Part shown: in pieces, positions 4,882 through 46,855 of the stretch | Layout of the letters: each line of letters begins with the position of its first letter | How positions within the stretch are numbered: position 1 is the first letter of the stretch | Assembly: GCA_965555375.1 (NCBI GenBank) | Contig: CBEWDL010000001.1 | Coordinates: 6,180 to 70,179, forward strand | DNA from: an uncultured bacterium | GTDB lineage: Bacteria > Zixibacteria > MSB-5A5 > UBA10806 | Direction of reading: 5' to 3' | Length of the DNA: 64,000 nt | Notes under the pieces: model-generated | What the model saw: the letters and a program-made list of their open reading frames with translations, nothing else | What the model was told of the DNA's origin: nothing | Databases searched by the model: none | Position numbers and translations under genes: made by a program

Positions 4882-4987
4882 GAGAAGTAGGGCAGGGCTC
4901 TCTTTGTGCTGCCACCCGGGATTTTGGCAGGAGCGGCGGATCCTACCCTGCAAGGAATAGAGTGTAACTAAAATATTCGGTGATCCT

Positions 4988-6106
4988 ATGCTGATTATTG
5001 ACATTAAACTTATCTTGGATGACGAAACCATAGTAGGTGACAAAGCTGTAGTTAAATACTTCAAGAATGGCGAACCGCAAGAGACCTTACATAAACACTT
5101 TCCGGGAGTTCTTTATGTGGAAGAAACCGCCGATTATAATATTACGACAAGAAATATAGATATGATGAAAAAGCTATATTTGCATCATGATATTGAAGGA
5201 AAGAATGAAATCAAAACTGCGTTGTCGAAGACCTTTTCCTATCAGAAAGGTTTTTATCATGAAATCAACTATTTTGCATTTGCAGTATTGCTTGTCATAG
5301 ATAAGAATACAGCATTAGATAAATTAGAAGCTGAATTTGTCTTGGATTCAGCGTATGCGGATACGCTTCATGTTTTGGGATTAATATTGATTTTTAAGCA
5401 TGATCATTTTGAAGCAAAGGACATTAGCAGATTAAAAGCTTTTCTAACAAGAATACAGAAGCAAATAGAGCCTCATGGGGATCCAACACTACCAATTCCA
5501 CATGGGCGCCGTCTGGAAGGAGAGGATAGATCGCGAATATTCGTAACAGGTTCCAATATTCATATAAGATCATTCAAGTATTCTATAATTCCAAATATCA
5601 TTAGAACGATACATGAGATTGAATATGGTCAACTAGGGAAATTTCTTGAAGGGATAAATTATGAGATTAATTCTGACAGAATTGCCCTTATCAGCAGAAT
5701 GGACGAACTTGAATTTCCTGAGGATGCTAAAAAATCCCTAGATGAAATTGATAAAATATATTTCGGCTCTCCAGATAAATTTGAATGTAAGAGTTGTATG
5801 GGTCTTATACGGACCTTTTTTGAGGAAATATTCAGAGAATTGGTACAAGGTTTGAGTAAGATCACGGGCAAACCATATGAATCTGAAAGTGATAGATTCA
5901 GCAATAGAAGAAAATATTTGCTGGGAATCGATTTTATAAATAATGACGAGGCAGAATTTTATCAACGATATTACAATCTCGTATCTAACGAGGGAATTCA
6001 CAGTTTGACGTCTAAACGTGAATATGTTAGAATTAGTCGCAATATGGCTATTGAATTAGGTTTGCTATTGTTAAATAGGTATAATGAGTATAAGAAGAAT
6101 GGTTAG
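4988..6106 (+). CDS. Low-GC ORFan (372 aa), no TM segments. C-terminal ~110 aa resemble a DUF4145-type helical domain. Candidate horizontally acquired defence/Abi-like gene
   Basis: GC visibly lower (~35%) than flanking leuD and leuB (~50-55%). Long uninterrupted ORF between leuD and leuB. No recognisable catalytic motif. Confidence 0.6.
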   Translation: MLIIDIKLILDDETIVGDKAVVKYFKNGEPQETLHKHFPGVLYVEETADYNITTRNIDMMKKLYLHHDIEGKNEIKTALSKTFSYQKGFYHEINYFAFAVLLVIDKNTALDKLEAEFVLDSAYADTLHVLGLILIFKHDHFEAKDISRLKAFLTRIQKQIEPHGDPTLPIPHGRRLEGEDRSRIFVTGSNIHIRSFKYSIIPNIIRTIHEIEYGQLGKFLEGINYEINSDRIALISRMDELEFPEDAKKSLDEIDKIYFGSPDKFECKSCMGLIRTFFEEIFRELVQGLSKITGKPYESESDRFSNRRKYLLGIDFINNDEAEFYQRYYNLVSNEGIHSLTSKREYVRISRNMAIELGLLLLNRYNEYKKNG

Positions 6107-6135: not shown

Positions 6136-7191
6136 ATGTATAAAATCGCGGTGATAGGGGGCGACGGTATCGGCCCCGAGGTAACTAAAGAAGCGTTGAA
6201 GGTGCTGAAAAAGGCCTCGGAGCTTTACGGATTCAGCTATGAGACAAAGGAATTTCCCTTCGGCTCGGAGCATTATCTAAAGACGGGCGAGTTGATGCCC
6301 GATTCGGTTTATTCGGAGTACAGAGATCACGATGCAATACTATTAGGCGCCATCGGCGATCCGCGTGTGGAGGTCGGCCTGGTGGAGCGGGCCGTTATCG
6401 CCGGCATCAGGTTCAATCTCGATCTATATGTAAACCTGCGGCCCATCAGGCTGTATGCGGAATCTTTATGTCCCATAAAAGATAAGAGATGCGAGGATGT
6501 CGATCTGGTGGTGGTGCGCGAGAATACCGAGGATGTCTATACCGGCATAGGCGGCATAATGAAGAAGGGGACTCCGGATGAGGTTGCCATAGCAAATATG
6601 GTCTTCACGCGTAAAGGATGCGAGCGTGCAGTGCGTTACGCCTTCGAGATTGCGAAAGCCCGTAATAAGGATAATAAGGTAACTCTTGTCGATAAGGCCA
6701 ACGCCATCCGCGCCCAGGATATATGGACCCGCACCGTGGAGGAGGTCGGCAGAGAATATCCCGATATAACTCACGATCATGCCTATATCGATGCCGCCTG
6801 CATGTGGATGGTGAAAAACCCGGAATGGTTCGACGTGGTCGTGACCACCAATATATTCGGCGATATCTTTACTGATCTGGGCGCCATGGTTCAGGGCGGC
6901 ATGGGGATCGCCGCCTCCGGGAATATCCATCCCGGGCAGGTCTCCATGTTCGAACCGATCCATGGATCGGCTCCGAAATACAAAGACAAAAACGTCGCCT
7001 GCCCCATAGCGGCTATCATGGCCGCTCAGATGATGCTCGACTTCCTCGGTGAGAAAAAGGCGGCTGCGGCTATCGAGGATGCGGTTACATCGCTCCTGCA
7101 ATCTGGCCGCATCAAATCCCTCGACGCCAGATCCGGGATATCGACATCAGAGATGGGCGATATGGTGGTGGTGGAATTAAAGGGAGAGTAG
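6136..7191 (+). CDS. leuB: 3-isopropylmalate dehydrogenase (isocitrate/isopropylmalate dehydrogenase family; homoisocitrate dehydrogenase not excluded)
   Basis: 351 aa. N-terminal [23 protein letters not shown] upstream. Context with leuC/leuD. Confidence 0.85.
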
Positions 7192-7240
7192 CATCGAATG
7201 TGGCATGCTTTTCCGCAGAATAAGCATGTTTAATTTCGCG

Positions 7241-7264
7241 CTGGCAGGAACCCTTTCCTGCCAG
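7241..7264. repeat. REP-like hairpin, inverted-orientation relative of the REP family near the RAYT gene
   Basis: CTGGCAGGAA-CCCT-TTCCTGCCAG, a 10-bp perfect stem. Core differs from the reverse complement of the REP core (GTCAGGAA-AGGG-TTCCTGAC) by a single stem base pair. Confidence 0.5.
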
Positions 7265-7323
7265 CATAAAGCGTCGGGAAGGGTCTACGACTCCTACGAG
7301 ATTCCCGACGGTGCCGTTAAAAA

Positions 7324-7887
7324 ATGAGCAGGATAAGATTAGAATTTTTCCTTCTGACTTCGTTTTTTATCATAACGCGTTTCTGGGACATAGCGGCAAC
7401 CTATTTCGTAACACCAAACCTGGAAAGGGAAACCAATCCTATAGTCTCGATATTCGGGCAGGGATGGATTGCGGTTATAATCATTCAGGCGCTACTGATG
7501 TCTGTGATAATCACTCTTAACTACTATAGCCTGTTTAAGATAGCAGCCAGCTATCCCTCACAGAGGGGCTGTTCATTTAAGGAATTTATAGCCTGTTATT
7601 ATTTTGGTGAAAAGCAGAACTTGATCAAAATGCTATATAGATTTCCTAAGAATAGAAATGTTTTAATAAGAGCGCTGGGCTATATTTTGCCAAGGGCCCT
7701 GATCGTGATCAGTATTTTCATATCCATGTCTTCGACTCTCTTAATTGTGAATGATGATTACCGTGAATTCTACGCTGTGGTAAAACCGTATTATTATATA
7801 GTTTTGATTGCGATTGTCTTTGTGTTCTGTATACTGTTTTTTAAAAGAGAATATGCACATTACCAGAAATCTCTTATGGATGAATAA
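7324..7887 (+). CDS. Low-GC hypothetical membrane protein (187 aa, about 4 TM segments)
   Basis: GC about 38%. Hydrophobic segments. No family recognised. Confidence 0.5.
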   Translation: MSRIRLEFFLLTSFFIITRFWDIAATYFVTPNLERETNPIVSIFGQGWIAVIIIQALLMSVIITLNYYSLFKIAASYPSQRGCSFKEFIACYYFGEKQNLIKMLYRFPKNRNVLIRALGYILPRALIVISIFISMSSTLLIVNDDYREFYAVVKPYYYIVLIAIVFVFCILFFKREYAHYQKSLMDE

Positions 7888-7936
7888 TATCGTCATTGCT
7901 CGATACCAGATTGATAGCCTGGCATATTATATTGCT

Positions 7937-8000
7937 CCGTCAGGTCGTAGCATCGTGTGAGCTGATGGTTTTTTAGCGGTCATGGCAAGCCATGACTCGC
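7937..8000. repeat. Composite repeat relic: degenerate long-loop REP (CCGTCAGG...CTGATGG) followed by hairpin-2 element GCGGTCATGGCAAGCCATGACTCGC
   Basis: Left arm and internal TCGTAG motif shared with REP copies at 10246 and 46046. Hairpin-2 recurs at 46869 with a compensatory stem change. Confidence 0.4.
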
Positions 8001-8285
8001 GTATGCGAAAAGGCGGGTCACGGCCTGCAGACTATGACTTGGCTTGATTTTTTTAATTGTAGGGACAGACCTTTAGGTGGCGTCATAAGTTACTTTTGAT
8101 GCATTCACCTTTTTGTGTCGGAAGTAACTTCCGACAGCACGGAAAGCATGTCACCTCTAAAGGGCGTATTTCAATACGCCCCTACGGGAATCGTCAGGAG
8201 CACGGGGCTCTGACCTGCGGGCTGGTTGTCGGGGGATAAACCCCCGATCTACTGGTACTACAATAGCCGCAGCCCGCAAAATTGG

Positions 8286-8313
8286 TTGACTTTCGTGACG
8301 AAATGAATAAATT
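8286..8313 (+). promoter_or_regulatory. Candidate sigma70-type promoter for the 8357 gene
   Basis: TTGACT, 16-nt spacer, TAAATT. About 43 nt upstream of the ATG, with RBS AAAGAGGA. Confidence 0.3.
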
Positions 8314-8356
8314 GAGAAATTTGCACGAGGGCGAATACCGCGGATAAAGAGGACTG

Positions 8357-10234
8357 ATGATGAAAGGTTTGAATCCCGACGAAATAAAAGTAATCCTGGC
8401 CACGGATTGCGGTTCCACTACGACCAAGGCTATTCTCATAGAATACCACGACGGCGAATACCGGCTGATAGTTCGCGGTGAGGCGCCCACCACCGTGGAG
8501 GCGCCATTCGAGGACGTCACAATGGGAGCCCTGAATGCTATCGGCGAGGTCGAGGAGCTTTCCGGGCGCAAGATATTGGATGAGAACGATAAGATTATCA
8601 ACCCGAGAGAAGACAAAAACGGGCAGAAGATCGGGACTGACATATATGTATCCACCTCCTCGGCGGGCGGGGGGTTGCAGATGATGGTGGCCGGCGTGGT
8701 GCGCAAGATGACGGCCGAATCGGCGGAGAGGGCGGCGTTGGGGGCCGGCGCCATTGTCATGGATGTTATCGCCTCCAACGATAAGAGGCTTCCCCACCAG
8801 CAGATCGAGAGGATCAGGCATCTCCGTCCCGATATGATTCTGCTTTCGGGAGGTATCGATGGCGGCACTACCACCCATGTGGTGGAATTAGCCGAGCTTA
8901 TCTCGGCGGCCGATCCCAAGCCGCGGCTCGGGACGGGATATAAACTTCCGGTTATCTATGCCGGGAATAAAGATGTCAGAGAACTTGTAAGAGATACGCT
9001 CGGTGATAAAACGGCGCTGGATATAGTGGATAATTTGCGTCCCGTGCTGGAGAGAGAGAATCTCCTTCCGGCCAGAGAGAAGGTTCACGACCTGTTCATG
9101 GAGCATGTCATGGCACAGGCTCCCGGCTATCGTAAGCTGATGGAGTGGACCGACGCTCCCATCATGCCGACTCCGGGGGCGGTCGGAATAATCATCAAGC
9201 GGGTGGCCGATGAGATGAATATAGAAGCGGTGGGGGTCGATATCGGGGGAGCCACCACGGACGTTTTTTCCGTATTCCGGCCCGAGGGCAAGCCTGAAGG
9301 GGTTTTCAACCGCACGGTGTCGGCTAACCTGGGGATGAGCTATTCGGTTTCCAACGTCTTCGCCGAGGCCACCATGCCGAAGGTCATGCGCTGGGTGCCG
9401 TTCGATATGGACGAGCGCGACCTGAGAAATAGAGTCAAGAACAAGATGATCCGTCCCACGACGATTCCCCAATCGATGCAGGAGCTGGTTTTCGAGCAGG
9501 CCATCGCTAAGGAAGCATTAAGGCTGGCCTTCATCCAGCATAAGAATTTCGCTACCGAATTGAAGGGTATCCAGCAGCAGCGAACCATCGCCGATGCTTT
9601 CGATCAGAGCACTGCCGGAGCCACCATTGTGAATATGATGAGCCTTGCTATCCTGATCGGTTCAGGAGGCATACTTTCGCATGCACCCCGCCGGCAGCAG
9701 GCGGCCATGATGATGATCGATGCTTTTCAGCCGGAGGGTGTTACCGAGCTGGCAGTGGATTCCATATTCATGATGCCTCAGTTGGGAGTGCTATCCGAAG
9801 TTCACCCTCAGGCGGCGACGGAGGTGTTCAACAAGGACTGCCTGATTCATCTGGGTTGCTGTGTGGCGCCAGCCGGCGAGGGCCTTAAAAAGGGCCAGGA
9901 GATGATGGAGTATAAGATAGAGCTTCCAGACGGCAATATTGAGGAAGGTAAGATTGTTGACGGGCAGATGAAGCTCATAAAACTGGGCCTGGGGGATGAT
10001 GGCCAGCCGCTGGCGGCCAAGGGGACTCTCAAACCAGCCAGAAACCTCGATCTCGGGAGGGGTAAAGGCAATACGGTCACTACAGAGCTATCTGGCGGTG
10101 TGGTCGGCATAATCCTCGATGGCCGCAGACGGCCCTTCGTTCTCCCTAACGACGCGAAAACGCGTGTCGCCAAGCTCAAGGAGTGGATGCTGGAGCTGGA
10201 TATATACCCCAGAGAGCGGCTGGAGCAGCTTTAG
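8357..10234 (+). CDS. ASKHA-fold ATPase of the glutamate mutase accessory protein GlmL/MutL family, with ~160 aa C-terminal extension
   Basis: 625 aa. N-terminal phosphate-1 motif ILATDCGSTTTKAILIE. Second actin-fold motif VGVDIGGATTDVFSV. No mutase subunits nearby. Confidence 0.55.
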   Translation: MMKGLNPDEIKVILATDCGSTTTKAILIEYHDGEYRLIVRGEAPTTVEAPFEDVTMGALNAIGEVEELSGRKILDENDKIINPREDKNGQKIGTDIYVSTSSAGGGLQMMVAGVVRKMTAESAERAALGAGAIVMDVIASNDKRLPHQQIERIRHLRPDMILLSGGIDGGTTTHVVELAELISAADPKPRLGTGYKLPVIYAGNKDVRELVRDTLGDKTALDIVDNLRPVLERENLLPAREKVHDLFMEHVMAQAPGYRKLMEWTDAPIMPTPGAVGIIIKRVADEMNIEAVGVDIGGATTDVFSVFRPEGKPEGVFNRTVSANLGMSYSVSNVFAEATMPKVMRWVPFDMDERDLRNRVKNKMIRPTTIPQSMQELVFEQAIAKEALRLAFIQHKNFATELKGIQQQRTIADAFDQSTAGATIVNMMSLAILIGSGGILSHAPRRQQAAMMMIDAFQPEGVTELAVDSIFMMPQLGVLSEVHPQAATEVFNKDCLIHLGCCVAPAGEGLKKGQEMMEYKIELPDGNIEEGKIVDGQMKLIKLGLGDDGQPLAAKGTLKPARNLDLGRGKGNTVTTELSGGVVGIILDGRRRPFVLPNDAKTRVAKLKEWMLELDIYPRERLEQL

Positions 10235-10285: not shown

Positions 10286-10397
10286 TATTTCTATCTATGA
10301 AAAGCTATCGGTTAGGAGCACCTTACCCGCGAGTCAAGGCTTGCCCTGACCGCAGACGGCGATTAGTGTGTGGCCCGATCTTCAATCTTTCAGGATT

Positions 10398-11405
10398 TCA
10401 GCATCCACTGTGCTGGCTGGATACGATCCGTTCATATCCTTCGTCAGTAATGTTAACCAGCGCGGCGCCCCAGTCGAGTATCAGATATTCAAGCTTGCCG
10501 TCTTCATTGAGGTCAAAGGCACAATAGATATCATACCGCCAGGGACCGCGCCAGGGTTCCATAACAGTCCGAAATTCCCAGCCTTTTTCGGATAAATGTG
10601 CTTTGTAGAGTGCAAACCAGGAAGCCTCTCCACCGGTTGCCCCGCTTGCAGCTATGTAAAGAGAATCAGGTTTGTTTTCGGATAGGGGACCGAACGCTCT
10701 GATATTGAAAGGGTGAAGTTCATACGAGCGCGGCTTGTCATCTCTCGGACCCACCTCATGATATGTGCCGTCTTTTGCCAATATTTTTTTAGGCGCCCCC
10801 CTTCGCTGTTCTTCGCTTATGACTTTGTCGTAGGTTTTATAGGTGGCAGTTAATATTTCCTTTACGGAATTTTCCCAGGATAAATATGACGGATCGTCGA
10901 TTTGGTACCGCTGGAAGGGAATTATCGGACCATTGTAGAATCTGCCCTTTCGAAAAACAACCAAGTTCCGCTGGCCGGATGGCACAGGGACGTGCTGTTC
11001 TATAGGCCGAAGGGAACATTCCATGCCCGAACTACAACCTCCTATCCAGTAGCCCACTTCATCGATTATAGCAAGATATCTTCCGGCTGAGTTAAGTACC
11101 ATCACTGTATCACCGATTCTGTCCTTCACGTATCGGGCGATATAATCATCCGGCAATGGAATAAAATGCTCTCTTCCGGTAATATGTAATCGTGGATCGT
11201 CACGCAGCTCGCGACCGTTGATTCTTTCAGTACCGAGATATATCGGATCGGCAAGAATTAGATCTTTATCCACGAATCCTATCGTAATCCCGTTTTCGAA
11301 ATAAGATTTAACTGGCGCGTCGTTTGCGAATGGCTCCTGCCAGCAAGCCAACAACAGAATTAGAATCATGACAATCATCGAAAGTTTTGATCCGAGCAAA
11401 TTCAT
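10398..11405 (-). CDS. Secreted hypothetical protein (signal peptide, 335 aa)
   Basis: N-terminal hydrophobic leader MIVMILILLLAC. Trp/Tyr-rich mature part. No family recognised. Confidence 0.6.
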   Translation of the reverse strand: MNLLGSKLSMIVMILILLLACWQEPFANDAPVKSYFENGITIGFVDKDLILADPIYLGTERINGRELRDDPRLHITGREHFIPLPDDYIARYVKDRIGDTVMVLNSAGRYLAIIDEVGYWIGGCSSGMECSLRPIEQHVPVPSGQRNLVVFRKGRFYNGPIIPFQRYQIDDPSYLSWENSVKEILTATYKTYDKVISEEQRRGAPKKILAKDGTYHEVGPRDDKPRSYELHPFNIRAFGPLSENKPDSLYIAASGATGGEASWFALYKAHLSEKGWEFRTVMEPWRGPWRYDIYCAFDLNEDGKLEYLILDWGAALVNITDEGYERIVSSQHSGC

Positions 11406-45677: not shown

Positions 45678-45701
45678 CTGTCAGGAAAGGGTTCCTGACA
45701 G
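45678..45701. repeat. REP element (palindromic hairpin) downstream of hutU
   Basis: CTGTCAGGAA-AGGG-TTCCTGACAG followed by GCGCG. Confidence 0.6.
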
Positions 45702-45721
45702 CGCGAGTAATATCTAATGTC

Positions 45722-46030
45722 ATGAGCAGGACTGGAAAAAACCACTACCTGATAATATATCGTCCTCCGAGAGCGAGCTTTGCGGAGGATGCCACGCCGA
45801 AGGAGACCGCCGTAATCGAACGGCATTTCGAGTATCTGAAGAATAAGCTGGCAGACGGTTCCCTTATCATGGCCGGGCGAACCGAGAATAGGAGTTTCGG
45901 CATCGCCGTCATTCAAGCCGACAGCGAGGGGATGGCGAGAGAGATAATGGCCAACGACCCGGCGGTGAAGGAGGGGGTATTCACCGGCGAGCTTCTGCCC
46001 TTCAGGCTGGCGCTGGGGGGCGGGGAGTGA
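45722..46030 (+). CDS. YciI-like protein
   Basis: 102 aa. YLIIYRP...LIMAGRTEN...GIAVIQADSEGMAREIMANDP pattern of the YciI/Dabb fold. Confidence 0.6.
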   Translation: MSRTGKNHYLIIYRPPRASFAEDATPKETAVIERHFEYLKNKLADGSLIMAGRTENRSFGIAVIQADSEGMAREIMANDPAVKEGVFTGELLPFRLALGGGE

Positions 46031-46045
46031 CTGTAAGGCTAAGAA

Positions 46046-46092
46046 CCGTCAGGAAAGGCCTATGGTTCGTATGAGGTTCCTGACGGCGCGGG
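46046..46092. repeat. REP element, long-loop variant
   Basis: CCGTCAGGAA ... TTCCTGACGG with a 21-nt loop, followed by CGCGGG. Confidence 0.6.
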
Positions 46093-46124
46093 ACGGGAAA
46101 GTTCCGGTATGAGGATGTGAATGT

Positions 46125-46158
46125 GCCGTCAGGAAAGGATTCCTGACGGCGCGGGGGG
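46125..46158. repeat. REP element
   Basis: GCCGTCAGGAA-AGGA-TTCCTGACGGC followed by GCGGGGGG. Confidence 0.6.
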
Positions 46159-46216
46159 ATGATCAAGGATAATCCAGGCAAACCATGAGTCCAGGAGAAA
46201 GATAGACCAACGGGGC

Positions 46217-46242
46217 GGGGTCAGGAACCCCTTCCTGACCCC
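46217..46242. repeat. REP element, inverted orientation / variant
   Basis: GGGGTCAGGAA-CCCC-TTCCTGACCCC. The loop is the complement of the other copies. Confidence 0.55.
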
Positions 46243-46244
46243 TC

Positions 46245-46844
46245 ATGGGAAAAAGTATGAGAGGCAGAAAACGAAATAATTTTGAAAGACACGGCGATCT
46301 ATTCTTCGTCACTTCAACAGTTGTAGGATTTGCCAGAATCTTTGAATTGAAGTATATGTGCGATATAATGATTGAAAACCTGAATTATTATCAGAATAGG
46401 GGTGATTTCACCATCATCGCTTATGTCATAATGCCGGATCATTTTCATCTTATCATAAAAACCGACAAGGGCTTATCAATATCACAATGTATCGGAAATC
46501 TCAAGCGAATCACTTCAAGAAAGATAACTTCGGAATTAGAGAAACAAGGGAATAAAAAGCTATTATCATCCCTTAGCAAAAACGCCTTGTTGGAACCGTC
46601 GTCGGATAGCAGAGTATGGAAATATCGGTTTGACTCTTTCGTCATTACAAATGAGGATACCTTACGCCGGAAGATTCAATATATTCATAATAATCCGGTA
46701 ACGTCCGGCCTGGTTTCGGAACCGACGGAATGGCGATATACAAGCGCCCGAAATTATGCGGGGCTGGATGATGTCTTGATTCCGGTTGATGTCGAATGGA
46801 GATGTTTGGATTACGGCTTTGTGCCGTCAGGAAAGGGTTCCTGA
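46245..46844 (+). CDS. REP-associated tyrosine transposase (RAYT; IS200/IS605 TnpA-like HuH Y1 transposase)
   Basis: HuH motif IMPDHFHLII. Catalytic Tyr region KIQYIHNNPVTSGLV. 199 aa. The stop codon lies inside the downstream REP. Confidence 0.7.
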   Translation: MGKSMRGRKRNNFERHGDLFFVTSTVVGFARIFELKYMCDIMIENLNYYQNRGDFTIIAYVIMPDHFHLIIKTDKGLSISQCIGNLKRITSRKITSELEKQGNKKLLSSLSKNALLEPSSDSRVWKYRFDSFVITNEDTLRRKIQYIHNNPVTSGLVSEPTEWRYTSARNYAGLDDVLIPVDVEWRCLDYGFVPSGKGS

Positions 46845-46855
46845 CGGCGCGGGGG
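46823..46855. repeat. REP element overlapping the RAYT stop codon
   Basis: GCCGTCAGGAA-AGGG-TTCCTGACGGC followed by GCGGGGG. The TGA stop of the transposase is within the right arm. Confidence 0.6.

Follow-up and report, generated by a model that had tools for sequence, protein, structure and literature searches.

A dispensable cluster of REP-type palindromes in the spacer between a conserved low-GC membrane-protein gene and a GlmL-like gene of Zixibacteria

Introduction

A 64-kb stretch of DNA from a bacterium of the phylum Zixibacteria (the window, which is the part of the source genome in view) contains an unusually long and highly structured spacer between ORF187, a low-GC open reading frame (ORF) located downstream from leuB, and a GlmL-like gene. 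A preliminary description of the sequence proposed that this spacer could be a structured leader or riboswitch, a small RNA (sRNA), or the scar of a mobile element that had delivered the neighbouring ORFs. The question raised by the locus is which of these, if any, accounts for the structure. Palindromes of the repetitive extragenic palindrome (REP) type make up the core of the spacer, in a modular cluster that is dispensable, and the gene of a REP-associated tyrosine transposase (RAYT), flanked by related hairpins, is present in the same window.

In E. coli, REPs are stem-loops organised in bacterial interspersed mosaic elements (BIMEs), the RAYT is encoded at a single locus flanked by BIMEs, and a GTAG 5' of the hairpin, at its foot, is required for RAYT binding and cleavage of single-stranded REP DNA (PMC3479197). 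Inverted REP doublets are known as REPINs (PMC3337134, PMC3116915). RAYTs occur in about 24% of species, in many bacterial classes (PMC5581495).

Results

The spacer has conserved flanks and a dispensable core

The main features of the locus, in window coordinates, are:

7324-7887, plus strand: ORF187, 187 aa, four-helix membrane protein
7888-8356: non-coding stretch (spacer), 469 nt
8286-8313, plus strand: promoter-like site of the GlmL-like gene, TTGACT-16-TAAATT, 9/12
8357-10234: GlmL-like gene

The region was compared, by BLAST and alignment, with five related loci (L001, L005, L006, L007 and L161), and the spacer could be divided into three parts: 7888-7970, 7971-8277 and 8278-8356. The first 83 nt (7888-7970) are 84-92% identical in L005, L006 and L007. 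The last 79 nt (8278-8356) are 84-87% identical in L006 and in L005, for which the first 37 nt, to the contig end, could be compared; L161 matches from 8279 on at 88%, and L007 ends before this part.

The core, 7971-8277, is absent from L006 and L005, both of which keep the two flanks. Their empty site reads CTGACGG-TTGTGATGGATCTGC-AAAAGTGGTTGAC, which in L006 is ...CTGCAAAAGTGGTTGAC... with a single AAAAG. Since L006 is the closest relative (93% nucleotide identity over leuB and ORF187, with GlmL downstream), the block is dispensable. In L007 and its near-twin L161, which are about 90% identical to the window in the flanks, 8010-8252 is present and 94.7% identical, and the first hairpin (7971-8009) is missing. 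These two orthologous loci are the only ones with full-length similarity to the block, which can safely be described from the alignments as a presence/absence polymorphism.

The first part, 7888-7970, is, judged from its conservation, ancestral spacer lying outside the inserted block. It has an invariant stretch of about 30 nt, GGCATATTATATTG.TCC.TCAGGTCGT, and a stem, CCGTCAG (7937-7943) / CTGATGG (7962-7968), which resembles that of the hp1 hairpins described below and folds at -6.3 kcal/mol (z -3.5). This part is as conserved as coding sequence in the three relatives, and its minus strand has a perfect TATAAT.

The minimum free energy of the spacer was compared, strand by strand, with that of dinucleotide shuffles. 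The plus strand folded at -173.7 kcal/mol against -141.3 +/- 5.8 kcal/mol in the shuffles (z -5.6, 0/100 shuffles), and the minus strand folded nearly as well (z -5.2). The spacer is thus as highly structured as had been described, and the near-equal excess on both strands points to DNA palindromes rather than to a strand-specific RNA. The window contains 14 perfect hairpins with stems of 8 bp or longer, against 6.6 in whole-window shuffles; four of them lie in 7240-8181 and another four around 45678-46848.

The core is a mosaic of short palindromes

The block was resolved into a mosaic of at least six short imperfect palindromes of 24-26 nt each, in the order H_A(+), B(+), C(-), D(-), E(-), F(-), separated by linkers of 7-75 nt and bracketed, from 8013 on, by AAAAG (8008-8012) and AAAAT (8278-8282). 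All six are extragenic. Folded as single-stranded DNA (ssDNA) they gave -3.7 to -9.3 kcal/mol, with z of -3.4 or lower in 5/6. The parts of the block are:

7976-8001, plus strand: H_A, termed hairpin-2 in the preliminary description (GCGGTCATGGCAAGCCATGACTCGCG), a bulged 11-bp hairpin, GCG-GTCATGGC-AA-GCCATGAC-T-CGC
8013-8076: left part of the block; its terminus GCGGGTCACGGC resembles an arm of H_A
8077-8102, plus strand: REP-B, GTGGC + GCGTCATAAGT-T-ACTTTTGATGC, left half of an inverted doublet
8116-8140, minus strand: REP-C, GTGCT + GTCGGAAGTTACTTCCGAC, right half of that doublet, in opposite orientation to REP-B
8162-8185, minus strand: REP-D, GTAG + GGGCGTAT-TGAA-ATACGCCC (GTAG + GGGCGTATTGAAATACGCCC)
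8193-8218, minus strand: REP-E, GCAG (GTAG in L007 and L161) + GTCAG-AGC...GCTCCTGAC, stem foot GTCAG...CTGAC
8229-8252, minus strand: REP-F, GTAG-A + TCGGGGG-TTTAT-CCCCCGA (TCGGGGGTTTATCCCCCGA)
8253-8277: right tail of the block, window only; its CAGCCCGC pairs with GCGGGCTG

All sequence motifs quoted in the preliminary description were found, at or within one base of the place given for them. REP-B and REP-C belong to one type and face in opposite directions, which explains why AAGTTACTT (at 8087) and AAGTAACTT (at 8122) form an inverted pair. The palindrome said to embed this pair is present, and its length is 21 nt (TGTCGGAAGTAACTTCCGACA, 8116-8136), not 13 bp. The hairpin GGGCGTATTTCAATACGCCC lies at 8162-8181, and the long-range pairing of GCGGGCTG (8217-8224) with CAGCCCGC (8270-8277) encloses GGGGGATAAACCCCC (8231-8245). 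Hairpin-2, which had been called a relic, is intact, with 8 bp perfectly paired in its stem; decay is seen in REP-B and REP-E instead. The REP-B copy of the window has three mismatches to the consensus GGCGTCAGAAGTTACTTCTGACGC, one of which unpairs the stem. In the REP-E copy a stem base and the GTAG have been lost relative to L161, and its fold is weak (z -1.7).

A GTAG 5' of the hairpin is present in REP-D and REP-F, and in REP-E of L007, L161, L095, L105 and L120; REP-B and REP-C carry GTGNY instead. In a census of GTAG followed by a hairpin with a stem of at least 6 bp, the window contained 4 sites against 8.4 in shuffles. GTAG-type REPs are therefore not abundant in these 64 kb; both GTAG sites with stems of at least 7 bp lie in this block.

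We consider the core, 7971-8277, to be most probably a BIME-like cluster of REP units, partly decayed, in a recombination-prone spacer.

The units recur at unrelated loci

REP-B, REP-C, REP-D, REP-E and the hp1 hairpin recur at non-orthologous loci in Zixibacteria contigs. For REP-B, 24 related copies were found in 20 loci. The core of REP-C was searched for as the exact 19-mer GTCGGAAGTAACTTCCGAC in public metagenome contigs, and 79 stretches contained it, with at least six copies on one 93-kb contig. The flank ANCAC (5' GTGNT on the REP strand) is one-sided and was present in 67/85 REP-C copies. Doublets of REP-B and REP-C, with a spacer of 13-15 nt, occur at 16 unrelated loci; a recognisable REP-B was located within 48 nt in only 16/86 core copies, the partner being truncated or replaced in the others, and these counts are affected by the bias of the sample toward the exact core.

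The stems of REP-B and REP-C, compared over 17 distinct sequences, showed changes on both sides in 5/10 pairs, with 95.9% of the cells paired. None of 500 shuffles (0/500) reached this covariation, and in slid controls pairing collapsed to 36-61%. G-T pairs were found on one strand only.

The two best non-orthologous copies of REP-D, in L104 and L120, keep the ...CGCCCCTAC end, and L096 has CTGC. Of the REP-E-like copies, those in L095, L105 and L120 have CTGACCTAC or CCGACCTAC at the end, and the one in L108 has CTGC, like the window copy. CTAC is kept on the same side in these two REP-D-like copies and in 3/4 non-orthologous REP-E-like copies. In L120 both REP-D and REP-E show compensatory stem changes, the one in REP-E being GTCGGG/CCCGAC.

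H_A has three copies in the window, at 7976(+), 10328(-) and 46869(+), against 0.02 expected by chance, and the copies differ by compensatory or G-T changes, the latter on one strand. No copy was found in 730 kb of related loci, and the copy at 7976-8001 is absent from L007 and L161. H_A therefore may be a later addition, specific to the lineage of the window.

The AT-rich contigs which have most of the REP-C copies encode a MetK 82-86% identical to that of named Zixibacteria metagenome-assembled genomes (MAGs). This identifies them as Zixibacteria, so that the REP-B/C family is phylum-wide and not cross-phylum. No transposase adjoins the repeats in these contigs; they lie next to ordinary genes, metK among them. 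In the AT-rich Ga0114922 contigs (L089-L166) the REP-C core is surrounded by a repeat of about 150 nt, ...CCCGCATTATTCACAAATCTTAACATGTGCT...core...AGCACAAAAACACTCTGTATTTTTAATGG..., the left half of which occurs in three variants: deleted, GAGAAGTTCGTCTTCTG, or with a nested GGCATCCGCCATAGGCGGAT hairpin. A single 19-mer followed by T8 was found in the viral contig L167 (11505-11523); with the look of an ordinary intrinsic terminator, it probably has no relation to the REP-C units.

A RAYT gene flanked by related hairpins is present in the window

A gene for a Y1/HUH protein was located 38 kb from the block. The features of this region and the further hairpins of the same types are:

46245-46844, plus strand: RAYT, 199 aa, HUH motif PDHFHLI, Tyr motif YIHNNPV
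45678-45708, 46126-46156 and 46824-46854: hp1 hairpins, GTGCC+GTCAGGAA-AGGR-TTCCTGAC+GGCGCGGGG
46217-46242: hp1 copy with inverted loop
46869-46894, plus strand: third H_A copy, 25 nt beyond the RAYT stop codon
10328-10353, minus strand: second H_A copy, between the convergent GlmL-like gene and gene 10398-11405
7240-7265, minus strand: hp1-type hairpin, GCTGGCAGGAA-loop-TTCCTGCCAGC, perfect 11-bp stem, between the leuB stop codon and ORF187

The protein scored 110.6 bits with the NCBIfam model NF047646 (REP_Tyr_transpos; cut-off 80) and 45.3 bits with Pfam Y1_Tnp (cut-off 23). On the IS200 equivalog model it reached 33 bits, under the cut-off of 55. It was first pointed out by a six-frame motif and tblastn screen, in which it was the only such ORF in the window; the tblastn query was an E. 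coli YafM sequence, and the assignment is based on the Pfam and NCBIfam scores, not on that search.

The RAYT gene has hp1 hairpins in both orientations beside it, and the hp1 hairpin there folds as ssDNA at -15.2 kcal/mol (z -6.9). The hairpin at 7240-7265 has the same type of stem (-14 kcal/mol, z -6.4) and is kept in L001, L005, L006, L007 and L161 with a varying loop. The stem foot of hp1, GTCAG...CTGAC, and its 5' GTGCC resemble REP-B, REP-C and REP-E. In other Zixibacteria contigs, L121 and L141, the RAYT genes are flanked by GTAG hairpins.

Several further observations were made around RAYT genes. The gene of the window has a GC content of 40% and lies between a 551-aa and a 422-aa ORF, which by eye we take to be hutU and hutI; a 102-aa ORF separates the hutU-like ORF from the RAYT gene, and a loop-expanded hp1 copy is found at about 46045-46098. 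In L121 (region 94-1266), whose GlmL is 83% identical to that of the window, a RAYT gene adjoins the GlmL-like gene. Hairpins of the type GTAGCCGGGGTC...GACCCCGG, in inverted orientation, flank this RAYT gene, and a doublet of REP-B and REP-C lies at a distance of about 550 nt. The corresponding region of the window, downstream from GlmL, has only the lone H_A copy at 10328-10353.

The block is not a leader of the GlmL-like gene

The block lies upstream of the GlmL-like gene, on the same strand, and is highly structured, which is what a cis-regulatory leader or riboswitch of this gene would look like. L006 and L005 keep 80 nt upstream of GlmL and lack the block. In L161, 1.8 kb with two minus-strand genes is located between the block and GlmL. 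The weak promoter noted at the end of the spacer corresponds to the promoter-like TTGACT-16-TAAATT, downstream of the block; L005, L006 and L161 keep both hexamers and their spacing, and the intervening sequence varies. A BLAST search for similar upstream sequence gave 0 of about 80 GlmL loci from other genomes.

The Rfam scan that had been suggested for the spacer identified no RNA family: nothing was found for 7100-8500 in a permissive search (E<=10), in which the best local E-values, 1.1-9.2, were far below gathering scores, and the whole window gave zero matches at gathering thresholds. The position of the promoter-like motif downstream of the block, together with the lack of an Rfam match, excludes the block as a GlmL leader or riboswitch. 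Regulation of the GlmL-like gene by the block is therefore extremely unlikely on this sequence evidence.

The hairpins could also be functional as RNA, in an independently transcribed structured sRNA or in an RNA derived from the 3' untranslated region of ORF187. The strong fold excess of the plus strand agrees with this, as does the tolerance of G-T (G-U in RNA) pairs on one strand in the H_A and REP-B/C families, and each of the three H_A copies lies in sense orientation 25-95 nt beyond a stop codon. The fold excess is, however, matched on the minus strand, and the one-sided G-T pattern is equally expected for ssDNA hairpins read by a Y1 transposase. No promoter and terminator pair was found around the block, which belongs to no Rfam family, is missing in the closest relative and consists of modular repeats that occur at unrelated loci. 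In addition, REP-B and REP-E of the window carry stem-breaking mutations when compared with the consensus and with L161. We regard an RNA of this kind as very unlikely.

The label of intrinsic terminator was also tried for the spacer hairpins and failed, the T-run being missing: a terminator scan of 7888-8356 found no hairpin followed by a T-run.

The block is probably not one inserted element

Another explanation is that about 265 nt, 8013-8277, entered in one insertion, as a single miniature inverted-repeat transposable element (MITE) or the decayed end of an insertion sequence (IS), ending in terminal inverted repeats and having duplicated its target site. Compared by eye, GCGGGTCACGGC and GCCGCAGCCCGC (8266-8277) at the two ends match as inverted repeats at 9/12 positions; AAAAG lies to the left of the block and AAAAT to the right, where the empty site of L006 has one AAAAG; and the presence of the block varies between relatives as that of an indel would. 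An inverted match of 9/12 and an A-run of 4 nt are nevertheless weak evidence, and the right terminus is missing in L007 and L161, so that this interpretation of the ends is based on one copy. No second full-length copy was found in 1.26 Mb of fetched loci, and among the 79 stretches with the central 19-mer only the orthologous L007 and L161 match over the full length, while the internal hairpins were found independently at other loci. The candidate of 8013-8277 as one MITE was rejected, because only internal modules recur; an origin of this kind seems unlikely.

Gene-order changes coincide with the hairpins

Similarity to L007 and L161 stops exactly at the GTAG of REP-F (8252). In L161, 1.8 kb with two minus-strand genes follows, and the GlmL promoter region resumes at 8279. 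The inserted genes (1844-3642 of L161) encode 160 aa and 392 aa and lie directly after the CTAC of REP-F; the last 12 codons of the 160-aa ORF, which by eye is presumably CMD/AhpD-like, run through REP-F. At the other end, positions 1-855 of L161 contain a different low-GC ORF, of 226 aa, in place of leuB, and the junction is the 5' edge of the hairpin at 7240-7265. Gene-order junctions thus coincide exactly with hairpin edges (7240, 8252). They could be real recombination at repeats or assembly joins at repeats.

Nucleotide identity gives the tree ((window, L006), L007), L005, L001. This tree conflicts with the distribution of the block. The block must have been lost in L006, exchanged by recombination between lineages or gained repeatedly at this site, and these histories are indistinguishable from the present comparison.

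Two other insertions were seen near leuB. A 46-nt insert right after the leuB stop codon (7193-7238), with the hairpin CATGCTT...AAGCATG, is common to the window and L007 and missing in L001, L005 and L006, a distribution at odds with the nucleotide-identity tree and suggestive of recombination here. Between leuD and leuB the window alone has a 372-aa low-GC ORF (4988-6106, GC 34%), where L001, L005 and L007 have a gap of 66-115 nt; it belongs to no Pfam or NCBIfam family, no relation to the 226-aa ORF of L161 was found, and a possible GTG+hairpin unit lies at its left edge (4906-4930). This other low-GC ORF is a true insertion relative to these loci, and no link to the block was found.

ORF187 is a conserved gene of atypical composition

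The preliminary description of a low-GC ORF for a protein with four transmembrane helices downstream from leuB was confirmed: 7324-7887 has a GC content of 37.1%, against 53-56% for leuB and GlmL, and the AlphaFold2 model showed four long helices with a predicted local distance difference test (pLDDT) score of 81. The term ORFan does not apply. A search of a large protein collection found 31 homologues, 60-90% identical and nearly all of 183-197 aa. Most come from metagenomes and are unnamed; the only named one is annotated as hypothetical in a Zixibacteria MAG, and the nearest relatives of the neighbouring GlmL-like gene are also from Zixibacteria MAGs. The family appears to occur in Zixibacteria-type contigs only. 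leuB precedes ORF187 in the window and in L001, L005, L006 and L007, and L002-L004 have a homologue in another gene context.

In the family alignment (28 sequences) the mean column identity is 75%, and the N-terminal motif R.WD..T...P.LE.ETNP is invariant. No Pfam or NCBIfam family matched ORF187, and Foldseek found no significant fold match in the PDB. DUF5658, a family of small membrane proteins, was touched weakly by 2/28 members (E=0.036, below the Pfam threshold), and the window protein itself did not match it at E<=10. DUF5658 proteins have an N-terminal helix and then an E.NP-type motif, similar to that of ORF187. ORF187 differs in being longer and having four helices.

In the window ORF187 has a GC content of 37% and a GC content at third codon positions (GC3) of 44%; in the relatives L001, L002 and L005-L007 the values are 34-38.5% and 39-48%, and in the genes adjoining the homologues 51-55% and 61-71%. 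The low GC of the gene in all relatives indicates a stable property of this gene rather than recent import. ORF187 is thus best described, from its composition and synteny, as a long-lived compositional anomaly in a vertically conserved gene. Since ORF187 follows leuB in relatives without the block, the block did not deliver it. The proposal of a mobile-element scar therefore stands as regards mobile-repeat DNA, of REP/BIME type and with a RAYT in the window, and falls as regards the delivery of ORF187.

Discussion

The anatomy of the block and the enzyme associated with it are those of a REP/BIME-RAYT system, a known kind of element in a little-studied phylum. As in the REPs and BIMEs of E. 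coli and Pseudomonas, the units are imperfect extragenic palindromes, within the 20-35 nt range, clustered in mixed orientation; three of them have GTAG at the 5' foot, degraded to GCAG in REP-E of the window, the stems are kept by compensatory change, presence varies between close relatives, and a single Y1/HUH RAYT gene, with hairpins of the same stem type beside it, lies in the same genome segment. The host phylum is different, the hairpin sequences are unrelated to the enterobacterial Y and Z REPs, the hairpins directly at this RAYT carry 5' GTGCC instead of GTAG, and the three GTAG units are in tandem in one orientation, not strictly alternating.

REP-B and REP-C, which are inverted and 13 nt apart in the window, are comparable to a REPIN (Bertels and Rainey 2011), and the arms 8071-8095 / 8122-8146, 76% complementary, could form a long hairpin. 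Unlike in REPINs, the left partner is truncated or replaced in about 55/86 copies, those of the AT-rich Zixibacteria lineage, and each half on its own is almost perfectly palindromic, with GAAGTWACTTC at the centre. Elements of the IS200/IS605 type share the enzyme superfamily and the imperfect hairpin with a 5' guide tetranucleotide, read as ssDNA. They differ in that neither a transposase nor TnpB lies between the hairpins here, and the Y1 protein of the window falls below the IS200 cut-off and above the RAYT cut-off.

Several findings weigh against a BIME-like cluster mobilised by this RAYT. About 65 nt of the block (8013-8076) match no repeat family and were found only in the orthologous copies of L007 and L161. 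REP-B to REP-F occur once each in the 64-kb window, where H_A occurs three times and hp1-type hairpins five. The hairpins directly flanking the RAYT gene, hp1 and H_A, lack GTAG, so that the cognate enzyme of REP-D, REP-E and REP-F is uncertain. By nucleotide identity the window is nearer to L006, which has no block, than to L007, which has it. Finally, the invariance of the REP-C core is partly built in by the exact-match search with the 19-mer; the flanks and the copy number are informative instead.

The following course of events would account for the cluster. The units would have collected between the 3' end of ORF187 and the GlmL promoter, a gap that tolerates them, seeded and rearranged by the Y1/HUH RAYT encoded at 46245-46844, presumably acting on hairpins extruded in single-stranded DNA. 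The stem-breaking changes in REP-B and REP-E suggest that the units are now drifting. The repeat nature of the units, their modularity and covariation, the differences in presence between relatives and a RAYT gene with related hairpins beside it are observed in the sequences; mobilisation by this RAYT, and any effect at the RNA level, we infer. Enterobacterial REPs form protective or insulating structures at 3' ends, and if transcription of ORF187 reads into the block, its stem-loops might act in the same way.

A further idea is that the REP-B/C doublet, GGAAGTWACTTCC-centred and with a one-sided GTG flank, is a phylum-wide site co-opted by the host, and that the hairpins are joints for swaps of low-GC cargo. 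The doublet is shared by Zixibacteria lineages that differ in GC and in which the proteins common to the fetched loci are only 43-50% identical. Rather than a purely selfish repeat, such a site might be one to which a dimeric DNA-binding protein binds, or an element that depends on the RAYT and structures the genome or acts at mRNA ends. We consider this rather unlikely, if conceivable.

The analysis explains the long structured spacer and takes two candidates out of consideration, namely a riboswitch or sRNA and an ORFan. ORF187 is flagged instead as a member of a conserved family of membrane proteins, 187 aa in the window, with persistently atypical GC. The REP consensus sequences can be used for masking, or as strain markers, in the analysis of MAGs, and the coincidence of contig breaks and gene-order changes in related MAGs with hairpins bears on assembly quality and on the movement of low-GC genes. 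With this locus, a REP/RAYT system that follows the 5' GTAG rule of the E. coli type is documented in uncultivated Zixibacteria.

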